From the sequence record MN022785.1: a stretch of DNA of 64,000 bases, one strand, 5' to 3'. A program made the translations under genes and the position numbers. Shown here one piece after another: positions 4,462-32,093 of this stretch; the first letter of the stretch is position 1; each line of letters opens with the position of its first letter. The notes under the pieces were generated by a model. The model saw only the letters and a program-made list of their open reading frames with translations, was not told the origin of the DNA and did no database searches. This stretch comes from Escherichia phage VEc20.

Positions 4462-5142
4462 TTATTTTAATGTTACGAAAGAAGAATTACGTGTTTCACG
4501 AATTAGAACTGATCCGTCACGATTAATGTAGTAAATTAAGCTAAATAAAGTTTGGTGTGCCGACGCATGTTCAAAACTAGTTGGATGAGATTTCCAATCA
4601 GGAGTTTCAGCGATCCATTGATAAATCCACCAAGGAACCGTACAGAATCCTGGATTTTTCCCCAATAATTGAAGATTCGGGCTAAAGTTTTCCGGAAGAG
4701 TAAATACAGACGGCTTTTCAGATTCAATAATCTCAGCTACAGCTTGTTCGAATTTTTCTTCAACAAAAGGAGTATCTTCAATCAAAACATCAGTATTTTC
4801 AGGAATTTTATCCGTTTCTACCACTTCAATTTTAATATCAGATTTAACTGGAGAATCAATCAGAAGTGCTGCTTCTGGATTAACTTCTTCATCGTCATAT
4901 TTTAACCCCTCTGCAGCATCAGCAGCATCAATTAAGTCTTTAATAGATAACCCATCAGTCTCTGGCATAGGTTCACTAGCGAGCTTCTGGAGGGCTTCTT
5001 CAATATCAGCAACGATATTATCAAAAGATTTATTCTTTTTGACCTTTATACCAAACTGTTCAGCATATTCAGCTAATTTAGCTTTAGCTTCTTTATTATC
5101 ATCAAGAGCCTTCAGCTCTGCAATATAATCTTTATCTATCAT
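4462..5142 (-). CDS. inh: prohead protease inhibitor Inh-like protein
   Basis: 226-aa ORF immediately upstream of hoc; position and length match T4 inh. Confidence 0.7.
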   Translation of the reverse strand: MIDKDYIAELKALDDNKEAKAKLAEYAEQFGIKVKKNKSFDNIVADIEEALQKLASEPMPETDGLSIKDLIDAADAAEGLKYDDEEVNPEAALLIDSPVKSDIKIEVVETDKIPENTDVLIEDTPFVEEKFEQAVAEIIESEKPSVFTLPENFSPNLQLLGKNPGFCTVPWWIYQWIAETPDWKSHPTSFEHASAHQTLFSLIYYINRDGSVLIRETRNSSFVTLK

Positions 5143-5155
5143 AATATTTCCTCAG

Positions 5156-5163
5156 TATAAATA
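5156..5163 (+). promoter_or_regulatory. late promoter TATAAATA
   Basis: Exact TATAAATA 29 nt upstream of the segE-like ATG. Confidence 0.6.
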
Positions 5164-5191
5164 TAGATATATTTATTACTCGGAAAATAGT

Positions 5192-5809
5192 ATGTACCAC
5201 TTTGTATATGAAACAACAAATCTAATAAATGGTAAAAAGTATATAGGAAAACACTCTACTGATGACTTGAATGATGGTTACCTTGGTTCCGGTAAGGCAA
5301 TTCAGCAGGCTATAAAGAAATATGGTGAAAACAATTTCTCTAGAACAATACTAAAAGAGTTTAAAACTTCCGAAGAAGCGTACATGTATGAAGAAGAAAT
5401 TATAACTCCTGAACTAATAAAAAGCAAAAATTATTATAATATGAAACCTGGTGGAATTGGTGGAATTGTTATGACTACAGAGGTTATAGCAAAGATGAAA
5501 GAATCTTCCGCTAAAAGATTTGAAAACTCACCAGGCACGGTATTAGGTAAAACTTGTTACACCAATGGAACTAAAAATATTTTTATTAAACCTGGAGAAC
5601 TTGTTCCAGAAGGATTTGTAAAAGGGATGGTTCATCCTAATAGAAAGTCCAGAAAAGGATGTAAAGTCAAACCGACTACCACAGGAACTTTTTGGGTCAA
5701 TAATGGCGCAATAAATAAATTAATACAACCAGACGGTATTATTCCCGACGGATTTATTAAAGGTCGTCTCATGAAAAGAGATTCTAAAGGCAAATTTAGT
5801 AAGGCATAA
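5192..5809 (+). CDS. segE: GIY-YIG homing endonuclease (segE-like)
   Basis: 205-aa ORF; N-terminal GIY-YIG motif YHFVYETTN...KKYIGK; sits between inh and uvsW where T4 carries segE. Confidence 0.65.
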   Translation: MYHFVYETTNLINGKKYIGKHSTDDLNDGYLGSGKAIQQAIKKYGENNFSRTILKEFKTSEEAYMYEEEIITPELIKSKNYYNMKPGGIGGIVMTTEVIAKMKESSAKRFENSPGTVLGKTCYTNGTKNIFIKPGELVPEGFVKGMVHPNRKSRKGCKVKPTTTGTFWVNNGAINKLIQPDGIIPDGFIKGRLMKRDSKGKFSKA

Positions 5810-5811
5810 TT

Positions 5812-7320
5812 ATGGATATTAAAGTACATTTTCACGACTTCAGTCATGTACGCATCGATTGTGAAGAGAGCACGTTCCACGAATTAAGAGATTTCTTTTC
5901 GTTTGAGGCCGATGGATATAGATTTAACCCTCGCTTCAGATATGGCAACTGGGATGGGCGAATCCGTCTTTTAGATTATAATCGTCTTCTTCCATTCGGC
6001 TTAGTCGGGCAAATTAAAAAGTTCTGCGATAACTTTGGCTATAAAGCCTGGATTGACCCACAGATTAACGAAAAAGAAGAATTATCAAGAAAAGATTTTG
6101 ATGAATGGCTTTCTAAATTAGAAATCTATTCAGGAAATAAAAGAATTGAACCGCATTGGTATCAAAAAGATGCAGTGTTCGAAGGATTAGTTAATCGTCG
6201 TAGAATTCTTAATCTTCCAACATCCGCTGGTAAATCGTTAATTCAAGCTTTGCTTGCGCGATATTATTTGGAAAATTATGAAGGTAAAATTCTTATCATT
6301 GTTCCAACAACTGCTCTAACAACTCAGATGGCTGATGACTTCGTTGACTATCGTTTATTCAGTCATGCAATGATAAAGAAAATTGGTGGCGGAGCATCAA
6401 AAGATGATAAATATAAAAATGATGCACCAGTCGTTGTTGGTACATGGCAAACTGTAGTAAAACAACCGAAAGAATGGTTCTCACAGTTTGGAATGATGAT
6501 GAATGATGAATGCCATCTTGCTACAGGAAAAAGTATTTCATCTATCATATCAGGTTTAAATAACTGCATGTTCAAATTTGGTCTATCTGGTTCATTACGT
6601 GATGGCAAAGCCAATATCATGCAGTATGTTGGAATGTTTGGTGAAATATTTAAGCCAGTAACGACTTCTAAGTTAATGGAAGATGGACAAGTAACTGAGC
6701 TAAAAATTAATAGTATTTTTCTTCGCTATCCCGATGAGTTCACTACTAAATTAAAGGGAAAAACTTATCAAGAAGAAATAAAAATTATTACGGGGCTTAG
6801 TAAAAGAAATAAATGGATCGCTAAATTGGCTATTAAGCTTGCACAAAAAGATGAAAACGCTTTTGTCATGTTTAAACATGTATCACATGGTAAAGCTATT
6901 TTCGATTTAATTAAAAATGAATACGATAAAGTTTATTACGTATCAGGGGAAGTTGATACCGAAACCCGCAATATAATGAAAACCTTAGCTGAAAATGGTA
7001 AAGGAATAATTATAGTAGCTAGTTATGGTGTATTTTCTACTGGTATTTCAGTTAAAAATCTGCATCACGTTGTTTTAGCGCACGGTGTTAAATCAAAAAT
7101 CATTGTATTACAAACAATCGGTCGTGTATTACGTAAGCATGGTTCTAAAACAATCGCAACAGTCTGGGACCTCATAGATGACTGTGGTGTCAAGCCAAAA
7201 TCTGCTAATACTAAAAAGAAATATGTTCACTTGAACTATCTTTTAAAACACGGCATTGATCGTATTCAGCGCTACGCAGATGAAAAATTTAATTACGTAA
7301 TGAAAACAGTTAATTTATAA
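5812..7320 (+). CDS. uvsW: UvsW DNA helicase
   Basis: 502-aa ORF with Walker A (PTSAGKS) and DECH box. Confidence 0.9.
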   Translation: MDIKVHFHDFSHVRIDCEESTFHELRDFFSFEADGYRFNPRFRYGNWDGRIRLLDYNRLLPFGLVGQIKKFCDNFGYKAWIDPQINEKEELSRKDFDEWLSKLEIYSGNKRIEPHWYQKDAVFEGLVNRRRILNLPTSAGKSLIQALLARYYLENYEGKILIIVPTTALTTQMADDFVDYRLFSHAMIKKIGGGASKDDKYKNDAPVVVGTWQTVVKQPKEWFSQFGMMMNDECHLATGKSISSIISGLNNCMFKFGLSGSLRDGKANIMQYVGMFGEIFKPVTTSKLMEDGQVTELKINSIFLRYPDEFTTKLKGKTYQEEIKIITGLSKRNKWIAKLAIKLAQKDENAFVMFKHVSHGKAIFDLIKNEYDKVYYVSGEVDTETRNIMKTLAENGKGIIIVASYGVFSTGISVKNLHHVVLAHGVKSKIIVLQTIGRVLRKHGSKTIATVWDLIDDCGVKPKSANTKKKYVHLNYLLKHGIDRIQRYADEKFNYVMKTVNL

Positions 7321-14881: not shown

Positions 14882-15846
14882 TGTATTCTTTAGAGGAATT
14901 TAATAATCAAGCAATAAACGCAGATTTCCAACGTAATAATATGTTTAGCTGCGTTTTTGCAACAACTCCATCAACTAAAAGCTCTTCGTTGATAAGTTCA
15001 ATTAGCAACTTTTCTTATAATAACTTGGGCCTAAATTCAGATTGGTTAGGATTAACTCAAGGTGATATTAATCAGGGAATTACCACGCTAATTACAGCTG
15101 GCACACAAAAACTGATAAGAAAATCAGGGGTTAGTAAATATCTTATTGGTGCCATGAGTCAACGTACAGTTCAAAGTTTATTAGGCTCATTTACAGTTGG
15201 TACATATTTAATTGACTTCTTTAACATGGCATATAACTCATCTGGATTGATGATATATTCTGTAAAAATGCCAGAGAACAGATTATCCTATGAAACTGAC
15301 TGGAACTATAATTCTCCTAATATTCGTATAACCGGAAGAGAATTAGACCCTTTGGTTATTTCATTTAGAATGGATTCAGAAGCTTGTAACTATCGTGCAA
15401 TGCAAGACTGGGTTAACTCTGTTCAAGACCCAGTAACTGGACTGCGTGCTTTGCCGCAAGATGTCGAGGCAGATATTCAGGTTAATCTTCATTCTCGCAA
15501 TGGATTACCACATACTGCGGTGATGTTCACTGGATGCATTCCAGTGTCCGTAAGCGCTCCTGAGTTATCATATGATGGAGATAACCAAATAACTACATTT
15601 GATGTTACTTTTGCGTATAGAGTGATGCAGGCTGGAGCAGTTGATAGACAAGCTGCCCTTGAATGGCTTGAATCTGCTACTATAAATGGTATTCAAAGCG
15701 TTCTCGGAAATAGTGGAGGTGTTACTGGACTATCTAATTCGCTTTCACGACTTAGTAGATTAGGGGGAACTGCAGGAAGCATTTCAAACATTAATACTAT
15801 GACAGGAATTGTCAATTCGCAAAGTAAAATATTAGGAGCAATATAA
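14881..15846 (+). CDS. 54: baseplate tail-tube initiator gp54
   Basis: 321-aa ORF; TAATG overlap with gene 48. Confidence 0.85.
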   Translation: MYSLEEFNNQAINADFQRNNMFSCVFATTPSTKSSSLISSISNFSYNNLGLNSDWLGLTQGDINQGITTLITAGTQKLIRKSGVSKYLIGAMSQRTVQSLLGSFTVGTYLIDFFNMAYNSSGLMIYSVKMPENRLSYETDWNYNSPNIRITGRELDPLVISFRMDSEACNYRAMQDWVNSVQDPVTGLRALPQDVEADIQVNLHSRNGLPHTAVMFTGCIPVSVSAPELSYDGDNQITTFDVTFAYRVMQAGAVDRQAALEWLESATINGIQSVLGNSGGVTGLSNSLSRLSRLGGTAGSISNINTMTGIVNSQSKILGAI

Positions 15847-15850
15847 CAAC

Positions 15851-15880
15851 GGGGACCTTTCGGTCCCCATATTTTTATTT
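15851..15880 (+). terminator. intrinsic terminator after gene 54
   Basis: GGGGACC-TTTC-GGTCCCC followed by ATATTTTTATTT. Confidence 0.6.
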
Positions 15881-16165
15881 GCGGAATGAAATGAAAGCAG
15901 AAACTGAAGCAACTAAACTGTCTTCAATATAAACTTCAATTTTTACCGGAGCTTCTGACTCAAATTTACCTGTTACTACACCCTGAAAAATACTTTCAGT
16001 CTGTTCTGGCTTTGAAAAATTTTCAGAAGGAAAAATTCCGAACTTTTTATCTGTTCCAAAAATTTTAATAAATTCATCGTAAACCGCTTCGTTAAAAGCA
16101 TTATCAGCAGGAATAACGCCTTCAACTACAAGTTCTTGACCTAAAAAGCGTAAAGAAGATTTCAT
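15875..16165 (-). CDS. hypothetical protein (alt.-3-like)
   Basis: 96-aa ORF with RBS GAGGAA; driven by the early promoter at 16197-16225. Confidence 0.55.
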   Translation of the reverse strand: MKSSLRFLGQELVVEGVIPADNAFNEAVYDEFIKIFGTDKKFGIFPSENFSKPEQTESIFQGVVTGKFESEAPVKIEVYIEDSLVASVSAFISFRK

Positions 16166-16196
16166 TTTGTGTTCCTCATGTTATGTCAGTAAGACT

Positions 16197-16225
16197 ACTA
16201 TAACACAACACGAGGGACTTGTAAA
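16197..16225 (-). promoter_or_regulatory. early promoter (TTTACA-N17-TATAGT)
   Basis: Minus strand GTTTACA-17 bp-TATAGT; part of a 54-bp element (16173-16226) identical to 30449-30502. Confidence 0.55.
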
Positions 16226-16401
16226 CTACATTTTGAACTTTTTAGTACGCGGAATAGGCATGCGTCGATTTTATACTGTTTCATTGTTTGAAGAGCAGTA
16301 TCAAAAACAGCATTAATGACACCAATTGGATTTCCACTCAAGTTTTTAAGCTTAACTAATGATAGTTTCTCATTAACACCTATCATTACGATATGCATCA
16401 T
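16198..16401 (-). CDS. Alt N-terminal paralog fragment (aligns to Alt residues ~65-130)
   Basis: 67-aa ORF MMHIV...TMKQYKIDAC aligning to Alt MMHIVPF...TMRQYKIDAC; ATGA-coupled to the upstream fragment. Confidence 0.5.
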   Translation of the reverse strand: MMHIVMIGVNEKLSLVKLKNLSGNPIGVINAVFDTALQTMKQYKIDACLFRVLKSSKCSLQVPRVVL

Positions 16402-16583
16402 TTTATCGCCTGGTTTAACGTTTTATTTGTATCACCGTCAGAGGTGTATGTACAAAATCTAAATCCAGGAAGTACGCTTTCTTCACCGGCTTGAATAGCA
16501 AAAATTTGAGGTATTTTATGCTTAGGATTTAAGTTAACAACCGGCGCCGAAGCGCCGTCAAATAATTCTGTAATAAGTTCCAT
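16398..16583 (-). CDS. Alt N-terminal paralog fragment (aligns to Alt residues ~2-60)
   Basis: 61-aa ORF MELITELFD...NLNPKHKIPQIF...CTYTSDGDTN aligning to the Alt N-terminus; starts 3 nt after the alt stop. Confidence 0.5.
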   Translation of the reverse strand: MELITELFDGASAPVVNLNPKHKIPQIFAIQAGEESVLPGFRFCTYTSDGDTNKTLNQAIK

Positions 16584-16586
16584 GAT

Positions 16587-18683
16587 TTATCCTTGAACGA
16601 ACTTGTAAGGCATGTTTGTAATATCTATGCAAGACGCAATAATTCCAAGAGATGATTCGACTTTCTGTTTAACATTTGATGAAACAAATGATGCAAAATC
16701 AACTCTATCTTCTATTTCAATATCACCAGTCATTGCAACTACTTCACCAGTTTCCATTAGACGGTCACCGTCATAAATTACTGATTCGGTGAGTTCTTCC
16801 GTAGTCATAACTTCAGCTTGAATGAGTTTTGTATTATTAGATGTTGTTCCGTCGTTATTAGAAGCATCAGTTATTTTATTGACTTTGACCATCAATCCAC
16901 GCGGTAGAATAACTTCAGCTTCTGTTGCTATTCCGAGACTTCCTGGATATACAACATTAACTTTATGAGCTCCATCAATTGCCCATCCTATTTGAACTTT
17001 AACGTATTCAGGATTTTCTTTATACGCTCTTATTTCGTTTGGATTAATAGTTATTCCTTCTTCATTTTTATCAACTGTTAATTCATTGCGAGCTTCTGGT
17101 TCTAAAAGACCAATACCAGCATGTGTAATTCCAAAACGTCCAAAAATGATAGGAGTTAAAGAAGTAGATACAAAATTTCTGAAATAGAATACTTTATTTT
17201 TAACTAGTGCTTCGTATATAGGAGCAGTCATACTTTGAGCACGATAAACTGTAATGCCTTCTGGTATACGATCACCATTTTCAAAAGCAGAATCTAAATT
17301 AGTTATAGCAGCTTCAATTTCTTTTTCACTCATTACTTCATAACGTTCTGGATCATAACGACCCAAAAGAAGATTATTGATGTCAGTATATCCTGAACCG
17401 CAATACTCTCTAATGCCACGCTTTTGTGATGGAGTATATTTAGAACCATCACGGGCAATAGTAATATCAATCATTGGACCTGCACCAATTCCAGAGAAAC
17501 TATAAATCATTCTTTTGAGGAATTTAGTTTTTGTCGCGTTCCAGGAATTTTTAGTTATTTCTTCCCAGACTTCATCTGGCTGTCCTTTACGGGTTTTATT
17601 ATGTTTATCAAGCCAAGTATCTTTATATTCTTCAAATAATTGATTAACAGCTGCTGCGTATTTCTCTAAACATTTTATTGAAGTAGTCGGTTCATTTTTA
17701 ATCGCATTAAGAATTACATCTTTAATTTTTTCAGAAACTTCATTAACCTCACTTTTTGAAAAGAATTTATAGTCATAATGAAGTTCATCTGCAGTTCCTT
17801 CGGCAATGATTTTTGCTGCCTTAGTTTTAGAAGCTAATGAATTAATTCCAATTTTCATTTCTTCTGCTTCGGGAATTAAAGGTGCAGTAGCTGGTTTATT
17901 AAAATTAGCTGCTGTAGATTCATACTTCTGGAATAATTCACTTTCAAATCTAGAAGACTCTAATGATTGACTTTGTGCAATTGCTCTACGGGAAATTTTA
18001 ACTTTAACGATTACAGCTTGGTCAGAACGTTTATCATTTTCTTGTGCAATAGATGCTGCAATTGCCTCATTTTTAGTTACTTGAGCTCCAGTATCTTTAT
18101 TGATATAAACATCACCGACCTTCGATTCAACTTTAGTAAAGAGCTCGGTACTAATTTCCGGAACCCCTGGAATGTCTTCTAGTGATACATTTTTGCGATG
18201 TATAAGAATATATGCATACTTTTTATCATAATCCCAGAGTTCCTTAAGAAGGACGTATCTGCCACCTGAACGACTACGGATAAGTCTATCAGCAATAACT
18301 TGAATTTGTCGAGCTTGACCAGCAGTTTTAGACTTAAGAATACGGAGCATACAGGCATCAATTTTATACTGACGCATTGTTTGCATTGCAACAGTAAAAA
18401 CCGAATTGATATAATTAATTGGGCTTGGACCAAGACCTTTCAATTTAGCAATTGAACCTTTAGCGGTTAATGTAAAAGGAACAATATGCATCATTTTATC
18501 GCCCATCTTTAAATCACGATTAGTATCACCTCCAGATGTATAGGTACATAAACGAAAGCCTGGTTGTTCAATTGCATCATCAACATGAACTGAAAAAATT
18601 TGTGGTATTTTCTTCTTTGGATTTAAGTTTGTAATCGGAAGAGTAGTATCTTCGTCAAATAATTCTGTAATTAGTTCCATCAT
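16587..18683 (-). CDS. alt: ADP-ribosyltransferase Alt (packaged RNA-polymerase-modifying enzyme)
   Basis: 698-aa ORF; ART-like motifs (R...STS...EAE) in the C-terminal half; late promoter upstream. Confidence 0.85.
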   Translation of the reverse strand: MMELITELFDEDTTLPITNLNPKKKIPQIFSVHVDDAIEQPGFRLCTYTSGGDTNRDLKMGDKMMHIVPFTLTAKGSIAKLKGLGPSPINYINSVFTVAMQTMRQYKIDACMLRILKSKTAGQARQIQVIADRLIRSRSGGRYVLLKELWDYDKKYAYILIHRKNVSLEDIPGVPEISTELFTKVESKVGDVYINKDTGAQVTKNEAIAASIAQENDKRSDQAVIVKVKISRRAIAQSQSLESSRFESELFQKYESTAANFNKPATAPLIPEAEEMKIGINSLASKTKAAKIIAEGTADELHYDYKFFSKSEVNEVSEKIKDVILNAIKNEPTTSIKCLEKYAAAVNQLFEEYKDTWLDKHNKTRKGQPDEVWEEITKNSWNATKTKFLKRMIYSFSGIGAGPMIDITIARDGSKYTPSQKRGIREYCGSGYTDINNLLLGRYDPERYEVMSEKEIEAAITNLDSAFENGDRIPEGITVYRAQSMTAPIYEALVKNKVFYFRNFVSTSLTPIIFGRFGITHAGIGLLEPEARNELTVDKNEEGITINPNEIRAYKENPEYVKVQIGWAIDGAHKVNVVYPGSLGIATEAEVILPRGLMVKVNKITDASNNDGTTSNNTKLIQAEVMTTEELTESVIYDGDRLMETGEVVAMTGDIEIEDRVDFASFVSSNVKQKVESSLGIIASCIDITNMPYKFVQG

Positions 18684-18703
18684 ATCCTCTCTAGTGTTTA
18701 TTC

Positions 18704-18711
18704 TATTTATA
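18704..18711 (-). promoter_or_regulatory. late promoter TATAAATA (minus strand) for alt
   Basis: Plus-strand tatttata about 21 nt upstream of the alt ATG. Confidence 0.55.
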
Positions 18712-18716
18712 AAATT

Positions 18717-18734
18717 AAAGGCCCGAAGGCCTTT
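18717..18734 (-). terminator. UUCG hairpin terminator between gene 30 region and alt
   Basis: AAAGGCC-CGAA-GGCCTTT; minus-strand RNA carries a UUCG loop followed by U-rich sequence. Confidence 0.45.
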
Positions 18735-18921
18735 AGTAATCTAGTGGTAAGAGAGTACGATATATTTCAAACTTTGGTCCTTTTTCATAGGCATCAAATG
18801 TTTCTGTAAATTTATTATAAGCGTATGCATCTACAAATTCGAGAATGACTTGTGATACAGAAGTAGAAACATCTCCACCTTCTTTTTGAGCAATGACAAT
18901 TGTTTCTAAGTAAGCTTTCAT
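18733..18921 (-). CDS. hypothetical protein
   Basis: 62-aa ORF overlapping the gene 30 stop by 4 nt. Confidence 0.5.
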   Translation of the reverse strand: MKAYLETIVIAQKEGGDVSTSVSQVILEFVDAYAYNKFTETFDAYEKGPKFEIYRTLLPLDY

Positions 18922-20381
18922 AGACCAGTTACCTCATGAAAATCACCAAATACATCCTCGAATGTATTAGCTTTAGTTTTATCTTCACGTAAACGAATCG
19001 CAATCGGAAGAAATAATTTAACGTAATCAGTGCGGCCATCAGATTTTAACCAACCGTTGCATTCGCACTCTAGAATTTTTCCAATATAATAATTTTGGTT
19101 TTCCATAATGCGAGTACGGTCAAGTTCATGTGATTTTACACCGGCTTTATCTTTTAAGCCTGAACCAGCATTTACCTTAATTTTTCCACACTCTGACTCA
19201 AGAATAAATCCACCCGCTTTAGTAGGGTCTTTACGGTGAGGATAAATTCCTACAATTTTTAAATCAACATCAATTACTTCTTTAAATTTATAGAGATTTT
19301 TTGAACGAGCATTTTCCCATAATCCATCGATATTTTTGAGAATAATACCTTCAAGACCTTGGTCAATATACTTTTTATAAATTACCTTAGCTTCATCTAG
19401 GTTATTTACTACCTGGTTTTCAATTAAAATTACTTTATCATAGCCTGATGTCATTTGTTCTAGTTTAGAAAAACGTACATCATATTTTAAACGAAACGCC
19501 GGAAGACCGTATATTTCTACCAACGGGACATAATCCCAGACCTGAAACTTCATGCATTGAGCTTCTTTTTCGGAAATGGTTCCCTTTAAAGATTTATTAG
19601 CGATTCCATTAGAAGTAGTACGTGATTCAGCTACTTCGGCGAATTCTTTGGCTTTACTAATTTCAGGATAAGCATCAAAAAGAAAATCTAGGCCTTCTGG
19701 CTCCTTTTTAACTTGCTCATGGTATACCAATTCGCCATCAATTAACACGCCTTCTGGATGAATCTGGCGGGCTTCAGCGGTCATTTTGATTAATTCTTCC
19801 TTAAGAAGATCTAATCCTAGATATTCATTACCGGCTCGTGATAAAAGACGAACATCATCTAATTCATCACCTCTGACTTCGGCAAAGCACCGAGCCCCAT
19901 CAGCTTTTAACTGGGCAAAGGCTGGAAATTTGATATTCTTATTAATGCCTTTTTCATCATAAGAACTTGCCAGCATTTGAGGTTGTTCAGGAATTAAACC
20001 TGGCCAAACTTTGTTTGCAATAGATACTGAAGCACCACATTCAAGGTCTCGCATCATCACTCGACGCAAAACTTCAACATCATCTTTTTTACCATCGGTG
20101 ATATATCCAGTTAATTCCTCAATTGCTGCATTTCCAGTCAATTTCCGAGTAGCTAATGTGAATTCAATGAAGTCAAGCATATCGGTAAGAGTCAACATTC
20201 CAAAACTCTGGGTAGCAATACCAGGTTTAGGCCATTTCTTGATATAATACTGCAGCCCACGAGAATAAGTCAGACGATATACTCGTTTAAGCAATTCATT
20301 ATCTTTATTCTTTTCAAGAATTGCTTGCTTCTGCTTAGTTGAACCAATAGATGCTATTTCGTTCAGAATTTTAAGAATCAT
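18918..20381 (-). CDS. 30: ATP-dependent DNA ligase gp30
   Basis: 487-aa ORF, T4 ligase length; adenylation motif KADGAR. Confidence 0.9.
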   Translation of the reverse strand: MILKILNEIASIGSTKQKQAILEKNKDNELLKRVYRLTYSRGLQYYIKKWPKPGIATQSFGMLTLTDMLDFIEFTLATRKLTGNAAIEELTGYITDGKKDDVEVLRRVMMRDLECGASVSIANKVWPGLIPEQPQMLASSYDEKGINKNIKFPAFAQLKADGARCFAEVRGDELDDVRLLSRAGNEYLGLDLLKEELIKMTAEARQIHPEGVLIDGELVYHEQVKKEPEGLDFLFDAYPEISKAKEFAEVAESRTTSNGIANKSLKGTISEKEAQCMKFQVWDYVPLVEIYGLPAFRLKYDVRFSKLEQMTSGYDKVILIENQVVNNLDEAKVIYKKYIDQGLEGIILKNIDGLWENARSKNLYKFKEVIDVDLKIVGIYPHRKDPTKAGGFILESECGKIKVNAGSGLKDKAGVKSHELDRTRIMENQNYYIGKILECECNGWLKSDGRTDYVKLFLPIAIRLREDKTKANTFEDVFGDFHEVTGL

Positions 20382-29597: not shown

Positions 29598-29947
29598 TTA
29601 GAAAGGTCCTGGATGTCTTCTGCGAACTTGTTGAAGGAGTTGTTGATTTGTTTTTCAACCAATCCTGGCTTATGAGCCACCACATCCGCCTTCTTTGCGT
29701 CTTTGCGCAGTTTTTCATTTTCACGCTCAATAGCAGCAATTGCCTCACGATTTTTATTATTCATCGCATCAATATAATTATACTGAATTCGCAAATTGTT
29801 TAATGCTAAAGCGTTTTCATTGGCCGTTTTTGTAATTTCTACAACAGACGTTTCTAATCTTTCAATTTTATTTTTTAAAATTAAAGAAGTTCCGCCCAAT
29901 GCAATTACAATTAATAGCAAACCTGTTGTCGTATTACTTAATTGCAT
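29594..29947 (-). CDS. pseT.3: i-spanin (N-terminal TMD, periplasmic coiled coil) candidate
   Basis: 117-aa ORF; hydrophobic segment LLLIVIALGG followed by a charged helical region. Confidence 0.55.
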   Translation of the reverse strand: MQLSNTTTGLLLIVIALGGTSLILKNKIERLETSVVEITKTANENALALNNLRIQYNYIDAMNNKNREAIAAIERENEKLRKDAKKADVVAHKPGLVEKQINNSFNKFAEDIQDLSK

Positions 29948-30444
29948 AAAGTTTTAATAACCTCTATAATATCGTCTTGAGAAAGACCGTTAATTAAAAT
30001 ATGATGTTCCGCCGGAGATTTAGAAATTTTAAAGCATGCCGCAACATCTTCTGCCATATCTGATGCACTACGATTTGGATTACTAATCCCAAGGCGGTGT
30101 TTTCCCGTTAAAGGATTAACGATGATATAGCATTTACAGTTGTTAATATGAACATTAGGTTGAGTCTGATTAATGAACACATCACAATCATATTTCGCAA
30201 GCTGATTTTCTAAAAAGACTTTCATCTCCTCAACCGCATCAGGAAGCATATCACGGGCTTGCTCAAGACGACGATTTCGATATTCTTTAATGGTCGTTTT
30301 CCGCTTGACTTGCTTAGCTAAATCTTTCTTAAGATCGGTGATATATCCAACTCGACGATTTCCTTTGAATACAGAAATCCCATCTGTAGTATCACCGTAT
30401 GCTTCAACGACCATTTCAGTAGTAATAAGTTGTAAATCCATCAT
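29938..30444 (-). CDS. alc: Alc-like transcription terminator of cytosine-containing DNA
   Basis: 168-aa ORF between the spanins and rnlA; length and position match T4 alc. Confidence 0.6.
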   Translation of the reverse strand: MMDLQLITTEMVVEAYGDTTDGISVFKGNRRVGYITDLKKDLAKQVKRKTTIKEYRNRRLEQARDMLPDAVEEMKVFLENQLAKYDCDVFINQTQPNVHINNCKCYIIVNPLTGKHRLGISNPNRSASDMAEDVAACFKISKSPAEHHILINGLSQDDIIEVIKTLCN

Positions 30445-30472
30445 AAAGTCCTCATGTTATGTCAGTAAGACT

Positions 30473-30501
30473 ACTATAACACAACACGAGGGACTTGTAA
30501 A
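30473..30501 (-). promoter_or_regulatory. early promoter (TTTACA-N17-TATAGT)
   Basis: 54-bp element 30449-30502 identical to 16173-16226, covering -35, -10, leader and RBS. Confidence 0.55.
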
Positions 30502-30505
30502 CAGC

Positions 30506-32093
<1,588 letters not shown>

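Follow-up and report, generated by a model that had tools for sequence, protein, structure and literature searches.

The window, by which we mean the whole stretch of 64,000 nucleotides analysed, carries on its minus strand the gene alt, followed at once by two very short ORFs, alt.-1 and alt.-2, and then by alt.-3. The features that concern us here, listed in the direction of reading, are these:

16587..18683, minus strand: alt, an intact ADP-ribosyltransferase gene, 698 aa from the first ATG (ORF list, Pfam and orthology)
16590..16594, minus strand: Shine-Dalgarno-like AAGGA, 6 nt upstream of the alt.-1 ATG and within the last codons of alt
16587-16589, minus strand: alt stop codon, with the mini-ORFs directly downstream
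16398..16583, minus strand: alt.-1 ORF, 61 aa; codons 1-53 of a lost paralog of alt, then 8 out-of-frame codons and TGA
16421..16424, minus strand: A4 run, which is A5 in full-length paralogs (AATAAAAAC)
16398-16400, minus strand: TGA that ends alt.-1, exposed by the frame shift after loss of one A
16398..16401, minus strand: ATGA stop/start overlap of alt.-1 and alt.-2; its ATG is internal Met codon 62 of the paralog, the first M of MMHIV
16198..16401, minus strand: alt.-2 ORF, 67 aa; paralog codons 62-116 and a 12-residue tail non-homologous to Alt
16237..16245, minus strand: deletion junction at CTAAAAAGT, a 9-mer present here as a single copy (blastn against T2)
16226..16228, minus strand: former TAG stop of the full-length paralog, now out of frame (alignment of the T2 and ime09 3' ends, ...AAAATGTAG)
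16173..16226, minus strand: putative early-type promoter cassette of alt.-3, with 5'UTR and GAGGA; it overlaps the last alt.-2 codons and stop
16221-16226, minus strand: predicted -35 element of that promoter, GTTTAC
16197-16202, minus strand: predicted -10 element, TATAGT
15875..16165, minus strand: alt.-3, 96 aa, DUF5498 (Pfam PF17602, E 5e-64), outside the remnant
15849..15870, no strand assigned: bidirectional intrinsic terminator between alt.-3 and gene 54, an annotated terminator in e11/2, SP1 and fPS-2

The product of alt matches Pfam PF03496 (ADPrib_exo_Tox, E 1.9e-36), and its orthologues are alt of T4 and alt of T2. A preliminary description of this DNA had placed two ORFs, of 61 and 67 aa, just downstream of alt, and the ORF list bears out their coordinates and lengths. 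They are, in fact, already known. T4 has them in the same position between alt and alt.-3, and on the same strand (NC_000866), as alt.-1 and alt.-2 (NP_049810 and NP_049809; UniProt P39495 and P39494). The comparison with these T4 genes that had been proposed finds them to be the same genes, 97% identical: the proteins are 61 and 67 aa long in both phages, 59/61 and 65/67 residues are identical, and so is the ATGA junction. The window thus represents another Tequatrovirus isolate, with two substitutions per ORF and no essential difference. Both ORFs are intact in the window, as they are in T4, and alt.-1 has a good AAGGA and a LITE motif. Their homology to alt is also on record. A note in the T4 RefSeq entry traces them to the beginning of alt, duplicated long ago and now provided with a stop codon and a fresh start, and Nolan et al. 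2006 (PMC1524935), the only paper to which our literature search on alt.-1/alt.-2 led, gives them as paralogous duplications of alt.

Formal alignment to the N-terminus of Alt, the test by which the proposed homology was to stand or fall, is significant for both products. BLASTP aligns that of alt.-1 with residues 2-63 of the window's own Alt (698 aa; 36/62 identities, 58%, E 2e-22) and that of alt.-2 with residues 64-118 (32/55 identities, 58%, E 3e-20), a similarity far above chance. The ranges first suggested, ~2-60 and ~65-130, were right about the N-terminus and too generous at the far end, for the homology stops at residue 118, not ~130. Beyond that point, nothing in Alt corresponds to the last 12 residues of Alt.-2 (SKCSLQVPRVVL), which are encoded by the lost gene's 3' end, read out of frame, and by what was formerly intergenic DNA. 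The boundary between the ORFs falls where it had been said to fall, by an ATGA overlap at the MMHIV of Alt: the junction lies at 16398-16401, and the alt.-2 product starts with MMHIV at the same point as in Alt. (Stretches of the two peptides are IPQIFAIQAGEESVLPGFR in Alt.-1 and NLSGNPIGVINAVFDTALQTMK in Alt.-2.) The mini-ORFs share the N-terminal homology of Alt-like ADP-ribosyltransferases, then, and lack the ART domain (PF03496); at E <= 0.01 Pfam returned no match for either, unlike Alt and the paralog in T2.

That paralog is the key to the locus. T2 and ime09 have, between alt and alt.-3, an intact 2058-nt, 685-aa paralog of alt that starts 3 nt after the alt stop, as alt.-1 does, and is 41% identical to Alt along its entire length; in T2 it carries the ART domain (PF03496, E 8e-20). 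A 2058-nt gene is annotated at the same position in six further loci, and in two IMG/VR loci the paralog translates to 685 aa. The second Alt-like ADP-ribosyltransferase of T2, ime09, RB6 and pSs-1 (e.g. YP_010073850) is orthologous to the locus in the window. The first 348 nt of such full-length genes are 95-97% identical to the stump in the window; the ribosome-binding site is shared, and the start lies 3 nt past the alt stop in both. The AAGGA upstream of alt.-1, which is probably that ribosome-binding site, is identical in the T2 alignment, where it precedes the full-length gene. The difference is that the full-length protein has 685 aa and an ART domain and is under purifying selection, whereas the window is without codons 117-682 and so without catalytic capacity. 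The preliminary description had supposed a tandem duplication confined to the 5' end of alt; the complete 2058-nt, 685-aa gene at the same position in T2 and ime09 refutes this. Nor was the T2 gene built up from a T4-like stump, an origin ruled out by its whole-length homology to Alt and by the 9-mer, which is present twice in T2 and once here.

The full-length form is also the common one. Of 482 matching records, the deletion junction is spanned in 90, the remainder being read as split in the manner of T2, and an intact 685-aa paralog is accordingly assigned to ~80% of the matching Tequatrovirus records. Other searches were less telling. An IMG/VR scan with Alt.-2 found only five loci, two truncated, two full-length and one partial. 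The fused 128-aa query returned only two proteins from the protein database, a 92-aa ORF of the SG1 type and an 84-aa fragment, and is unfit as a survey of variants. A literature search for an account of the full-length paralog found nothing relevant.

The way in which the paralog was lost can be read from its ends. Against T2, blastn divides the window's locus into two blocks (96% and 98% identical) whose overlap is exactly the 9-nt repeat; the alignment has a single gap, of 1 nt, at the A run. In full-length paralogs CTAAAAAGT occurs twice, at nt 340-348 and 2039-2047 of 2058, and in the window once; 1699 bp (566 codons and 1 nt) are therefore missing, the whole ART domain included. What the window retains is the paralog's first 348 nt and last 11 nt. 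With the former TAG no longer in frame, alt.-2 continues as far as the TAG at 16198-16200. The division into two ORFs has a separate cause. The A run is A5 in 4/4 aligned full-length rows, and 10 full-length translations pass through it in frame; it is A4 in 17/20 truncated-type sequences, T4 included. Loss of one A from A5 has shifted the frame, and hence alt.-1 and alt.-2 are split. Sequencing error as the source of the frameshift is ruled out, A4 being common to 17/20 independent genomes including that of T4.

Yersinia phage fPS-2 (g192c) and phages SG1, EC128 and AV119, in which a 92-aa ORF is annotated, share the window's locus and deletion junction. Unlike the window, these alleles keep A5 and have no alt.-1/alt.-2 split; they have GAA changed to TAA at codon 6, and the annotated 92-aa ORF starts at an internal GTG. 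The depositors of fPS-2 had already labelled their copy 'similar to N-terminal of RNA polymerase-ADP-ribosyltransferase Alt; putative pseudogene'. We have taken the deletion to have a single origin; EC128 and AV119 have SNPs in common with T2, so the locus may also have been shaped by recombination, or these repeats may have given rise to the deletion more than once.

Among 20 truncated-type sequences, the A4 frameshift is found in 17 and the stop at codon 6 in nine; the other lesions, each seen once, are loss of one base from a T run, a duplication of 7 bp and loss of one base from the A run at the junction. An uninterrupted stump ORF is found in none of the 20. The substitutions tell a similar story. 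Alleles private to the stumps comprise 14 nonsynonymous changes and one stop against two synonymous changes, no different from a neutral expectation of 78% nonsynonymous (p 0.56), whereas the corresponding 115 codons of 10 full-length genes have nine nonsynonymous and 21 synonymous changes (p 2e-8 against neutrality). The two groups differ from each other (15 nonsynonymous or stop to 2 against 9 to 21; Fisher p 1.8e-4), in a test of 17 against 30 substitutions, classed in the ancestral frame, from genomes that recombine and are not independent. Three marks of a pseudogene are thus found together: close relatives (T2 and ime09) in which the orthologous position holds an intact homologue, disabling lesions that vary by lineage, and selection relaxed relative to the intact gene, this last on small counts from non-independent sequences.

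We are confident, on balance strongly so, that what remains here is a second full-length alt gene in decay, reduced to its 5' stump: an ordinary pseudogene, probably without maintained function. The architecture of the deletion, the lesions and the relaxed selection are there to be seen, and events most likely unfolded as follows. An ancient tandem duplication of the whole of alt gave rise to alt and the 685-aa paralog, both of which most Tequatroviruses, T2 among them, still have. In the lineage of T4 and the window, a 1699-bp deletion between the CTAAAAAGT direct repeats removed paralog codons 117-682 and the catalytic domain, and left 348 nt of the 5' end fused, in the wrong frame, to the final 11 nt and the promoter region of alt.-3. 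A later change from A5 to A4 shifted the frame and exposed the TGA, and with an internal Met codon overlapping this TGA the stump became alt.-1 and alt.-2. RNA polymerase reading through from alt probably transcribes the stump. The inherited ribosome-binding site can probably still serve the translation of Alt.-1; Alt.-2 would probably be translated only by reinitiation at the overlap.

In itself the stump matters little. It does, however, call for revision of the T4 record note: the source is a full-length tandem paralog of which this is a deletion remnant, and the stop stems from a 1-nt frameshift, not an insertion. In many records alt.-1, alt.-2 and the 92-aa variants are labelled 'RNA polymerase-ADP-ribosyltransferase', for which 'pseudogene fragments' would be the better label. 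T4, it turns out, has lost a second Alt-like ADP-ribosyltransferase that is kept under purifying selection in about four-fifths of the matching Tequatrovirus records, and this uncharacterised full-length enzyme is a target of more interest than its stump.

Could the peptides nevertheless do something? Some peptide may well be made from the window's intact ORFs, to judge by their sequence. The preliminary description went further and suggested that they may be small packaged peptides or decoys rather than junk. On this view they would be coupled mini-ORFs, from a duplication of the 5' end of alt alone, kept as functional peptides that are packaged by way of an Alt-like N-terminus or that act as decoys in prohead processing or packaging. 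The intactness of both ORFs in the window and in T4 suits this idea. So do an ATGA overlap of the kind common in coupled genes, the good ribosome-binding site that precedes alt.-1 and the retained N-terminal MELITE. The protease gp21 removes a 7-residue N-terminal propeptide from Alt, and its cleavage motif is L/I-x-E (PMC9026906); the expected cut after the LITE motif, MELITE|L, is kept in the window's alt.-1. To this extent the N-terminus of Alt is tied to processing, as had been claimed, while any part in targeting is putative; it is in IPII and IPIII, rather than in Alt, that the capsid-targeting sequence has been defined (PMC9958956), and Alt is processed at its C-terminus, too (PMC9026906; PMC9958956). 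The Glu codon of the gp21 motif, moreover, is the very codon 6 that is a stop in 45/90 truncated-type records, and elsewhere alt.-2 has suffered extra frameshifts. Together with neutral-like substitutions, and with a full-length paralog in ~80% of matching relatives that bespeaks whole-gene duplication, this counters the claim, and we consider functional peptides of this kind highly improbable.

Expression data from T4 also bear on the question. In the time course of PMC9697503, alt.-1 and alt.-2 belong to RNA class middle and protein class NA; the intensity of Alt.-1 is zero in 24/24 columns, where Alt and Alt.-3 are strong, and Alt.-2 is not found among the table rows examined, proteins this small being easily missed. 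This source thus records no T4 protein signal in favour of functional peptides, though absence from shotgun proteomics is weak evidence where proteins of 61-67 aa are concerned. A maintained function for the product of alt.-1 or alt.-2 is, in all, unlikely. A further speculation is that intact alleles still make Alt.-1, and perhaps also Alt.-2 or the fusion product of a -1 frameshift, and that since the Alt-type N-terminal propeptide region has been kept, the product enters the prohead core or competes with Alt for entry or for processing by gp21. We count this a long shot. In a related reading, an uninterrupted 127-aa stump would be harmful as a dominant-negative competitor, and this, if true, could explain both the 0/20 uninterrupted alleles and the existence of two common, different knock-out lesions.

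The split itself might be a regulatory device, with a programmed -1 frameshift at A_AAA_UGA (16398-16404) rejoining the ORFs into a protein of ~127 aa like the N-terminus of Alt. The slippery sequence is present: alt.-1 has AAA as its final sense codon, with an A before it and the stop after it, so that a slip would re-pair perfectly and enter the alt.-2 frame at its ATG (...AIK-MMHIV...; junction peptide AIK-MMHIVMIGVNEK). The A AAA motif is merely inherited, however, from an ancestral GAT AAA ATG. Neither a stimulatory structure nor an Rfam family match was found, so the conserved stimulatory element expected of such sites is lacking, and the two frames are not both conserved. The stop at codon 6, upstream, abolishes the fusion in half of the truncated-type records, and three sampled alleles are knocked out without having any frameshift at all. 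Programmed frameshifting is, to us, barely credible here.

There remains the thought that the stump is kept for a role in cis, of its DNA or RNA—in spacing, in stability of the alt or alt.-3 transcript, or as a source of promoters—and that its coding is irrelevant. The deletion ended 11 nt short of the alt.-3 early-type promoter cassette, which lies at the 3' edge, and alt.-3 is early in T4 in both RNA and protein, according to the supplements of PMC9697503. This accounts for only the last ~30 nt of alt.-2, however. The other 350 nt tolerate indels and a 7-bp duplication and have neither a promoter or terminator signal above shuffled expectation nor an RNA family match. A promoter scan of the stump gave 12 promoter-like sites against 11.8 expected from shuffled sequence, with the alt.-3 promoter at the 3' edge as the exception; no terminator signal within the stump rose above the shuffled expectation; and an Rfam scan of 15000-19500 (E <= 1) gave sub-threshold noise only, with zero matches inside the stump. 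A cis role for the stump as a whole is accordingly very unlikely, and we return to a pseudogene whose sole selected element, in or near it, is probably the alt.-3 early promoter. This putative promoter is the region's best sigma-70-like match (10/12, with TG), and alt.-3 is intact in every locus examined. The 54-nt cassette has an identical second copy elsewhere in the window, at 30449-30502 on the minus strand.

The window belongs to a Tequatrovirus closely related to T4, and the 1.1 kb around the two short ORFs matches 521 phage records at 80–99% identity. The gene order is as follows:

Minus strand, first in gene order toward alt: DNA ligase
Minus strand, between DNA ligase and alt: alt.1, a small ORF
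16587..18683, minus strand: alt, 698 aa
16398..16583, minus strand: ORF1, 61 aa
16198..16401, minus strand: ORF2, 67 aa
15875..16165, minus strand: 96-aa ORF in the alt.-3 position
After the 96-aa ORF: bidirectional terminator
Past the terminator, plus strand: genes 54 and 48, converging on the alt-side genes

Both short ORFs lie 3' of alt and are homologous to the Alt N-terminus, as the preliminary description proposed. ORF1 aligns with residues 2–63 of the window's own Alt (36/62 identities, E 2e-22), and ORF2 with residues 64–118 (32/55 identities, E 3e-20). The boundary, too, was placed correctly: the ORFs overlap by ATGA (16398–16401), and the MMHIV with which ORF2 starts coincides with MMHIV of Alt. 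The extent proposed for the alignment held at its start but not at its end—the similarity runs only as far as Alt residue 118, and the 12 C-terminal residues of ORF2 bear no relation to Alt. Comparison with T4 establishes that these are the same genes: at the same position the T4 reference genome has alt.-1 (61 aa), alt.-2 (67 aa) and alt.-3, and T4 Alt.-1 and Alt.-2 are identical to ORF1 and ORF2 at 59/61 and 65/67 residues, respectively. The feature is an already known gene remnant. The T4 record explains alt.-1 and alt.-2 as the first part of alt, duplicated long ago and given a stop codon and a new start; Nolan et al. (2006) place them among paralogous duplications of adjacent genes, and report that phage 44RR has a duplicate of alt at full length (PMC1524935).

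The preliminary description took the origin to be a duplication of the 5' part of alt. This is wrong: T2 and ime09 have a full-length paralog, and the window a 1699-bp deletion. What remains is a stump, decaying after a tandem paralog of alt lost its catalytic part. When the stump DNA is used as query, most Tequatroviruses align over the first 364 of 411 nt only, and there the aligned part is covered by a gene whose annotation is that of a second Alt-like ADP-ribosyltransferase. This gene, of 2058 nt and 685 aa in T2 and ime09, lies in both phages between alt and alt.-3 and begins, as does alt.-1, 3 nt past the alt stop. Its product is 41% identical to Alt from end to end and has ADP-ribosyltransferase domain PF03496 (E 8e-20); T4 and the window are without it, and the literature searched yielded no functional study of the gene. 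The T2 copy occupies 4518–6575 of its locus (L009), and there are equivalents in ime09, RB6, pSs-1, SH7, NBG2 and slur11.

Aligned with T2, the window falls into two blocks, one (96% identity) comprising the alt 3' end and paralog nt 1–348, the other (98%) the final 20 paralog nt together with the intergenic region and alt.-3. The blocks share exactly nine bases, CTAAAAAGT. Because these occur twice in the full-length gene (nt 340–348 and 2039–2047, in differing codon phases) and once in the window (16237–16245), the window has lost 1699 bp by deletion between short direct repeats. Codons 117–682 are gone and the frame is changed, so that the former TAG stop (16226–16228) is bypassed and reading would go 30 nt on, to TAG at 16198–16200. 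Only one further length difference exists, the absence of a single A: the full-length gene has AATAAAAAC, the window AATAAAAC (16421–16424). This loss produces eight changed codons and then TGA, and the paralog's Met62 codon, which overlaps the exposed TGA, becomes the alt.-2 start. The stop was thus exposed by homopolymer slippage rather than inserted. The truncated alleles of EC128 (L014) and AV119 (L015) retain the A5 run and have several SNPs in common with the full-length T2 allele, which suggests either that truncated and full-length alleles have recombined or that deletion at these 9-bp repeats happened twice independently.

An 81-nt query centered on the junction matches 482 records, GenBank/RefSeq duplicates included, just 90 of which span it; the same 90 recur in the wider 1.1-kb search. 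About four in five matching records thus keep the full-length gene. The new content here is modest: the exact deletion mechanism, and the loss from T4-type phages of an enzyme kept by most relatives. A third state occurs in Escherichia phage ECML-134, with one alt-like gene at the locus (L031, 3509–5569). It is alt-like over the first 687 nt, where it shares 89% identity with T2 alt; taken whole, the gene shares 90% with the T2 paralog and has the paralog's spacing to alt.-3, and it looks like an alt/paralog chimera from unequal crossover.

Is the stump maintained? We aligned 20 truncated-type sequences with four, and later ten, full-length ones. None of the 20 has an uninterrupted stump ORF, and only 10 have the T4 form of both ORFs.

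Lesions among the 20 aligned stumps
A4 frameshift: 17/20
GAA to TAA at alt.-1 codon 6: 9/20
Extra -1 in T run: 235Ecol030PP
7-bp duplication within alt.-2: HY03
-1 in junction A run: F25

A 49-nt query able to seed on the TAA allele only finds it in 45 records, a number equal to half of the 90 of truncated type. All nine aligned carriers, and Yersinia phage fPS-2, are truncated-type, and TAA is at codon 6 in none of the full-length genes examined. The fPS-2 copy was labelled a putative pseudogene by its depositors.

Alleles private to each group, compared with neutrality (78% nonsynonymous sites)
Stumps (20 sequences): 14 nonsynonymous, 1 stop, 2 synonymous; p 0.56
Full-length paralogs (10 sequences): 9 nonsynonymous, 0 stop, 21 synonymous; p 2e-8

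The groups differ (Fisher p 1.8e-4, on small counts from recombining genomes). The neutral-like substitutions of the stumps accord with the lesions, and are supporting evidence rather than proof of decay. The first 115 residues of the ten full-length paralogs are near-invariant and their variation is mostly synonymous, hence the paralog is under purifying selection. The main exception is a tract in APTC-EC-2A (L030), where codons 54–58 read NRDLKMG versus NKNVKPG in the other nine; the variant matches what Alt itself has at the homologous position, suggesting that alt has converted a short tract of its paralog.

The AAGGA 5' of alt.-1 (16590–16594) is the paralog's own ribosome-binding site, unaltered, and so an intact alt.-1 is probably translated to some degree; alt.-2, without a good site, would need reinitiation at ATGA. 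Fusion of the two short ORFs by a -1 frameshift at A_AAA_UGA is conceivable in principle, but the motif was inherited, a search for a stimulator found none, and a stop lies upstream in half of the truncated-type records. In the accessible part of a T4 time-resolved transcriptome and proteome, alt.-1 and alt.-2 RNAs are classed 'middle', like alt, and their proteins 'NA'; Alt.-1 (P39495) has zero intensity in 24/24 columns, Alt.-2 (P39494) is not among the table rows listed, and Alt and Alt.-3 give strong protein signals (PMC9697503). For such small proteins, a missing signal is weak negative evidence. The proposal that these are packaged peptides or decoys rather than junk is unsupported, surviving as an unlikely reading for the intact alleles, and runs contrary to the frequent knock-outs and neutral-like substitutions. 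Its premise, that the Alt N-terminus is tied to packaging and processing, stands for processing—a 7-residue N-terminal propeptide is removed by gp21, and the C-terminus is processed too (PMC9026906)—but no N-terminal packaging signal is defined: IPII and IPIII have a described capsid-targeting sequence, and how the remaining core proteins localize is termed mysterious (PMC9958956). The window's alt ORF opens with two consecutive ATG codons (MMELITE..., 18678–18683, minus strand), the T2 annotation beginning at the second (MELITE...); the propeptide would fit MMELITE if the cut comes after Glu.

A cis-acting role could explain retention of the promoter-bearing 3' edge of the stump, but nothing beyond it. 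The region's best promoter-like match in a promoter scan (minus strand, 16225–16197: TTTACA, 17 nt, TATAGT, TG upstream) is predicted just upstream of alt.-3, overlapping the last alt.-2 codons and stop; the deletion ends 11 nt before it. Extended by the preceding G at 16226, the putative -35 becomes GTTTAC, which Nolan et al. cite as the T4 early -35 motif (PMC1524935), and T4 alt.-3 is early in both RNA and protein in the T4 time course (PMC9697503). The 54-nt early-type promoter cassette with this match (GTTTAC, spacer, TATAGT, leader, GAGGA) occurs twice on the minus strand, 14 kb apart and 100% identical, at 16173–16226, preceding alt.-3, and at 30449–30502, ahead of a 168-aa ORF (29938..30444) and just past an RNA-ligase-1-like ORF (30506..31666); no match arose in 100 shuffles of the window. 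The cassette resembles mobile early-promoter cassettes known from T4-type phages.
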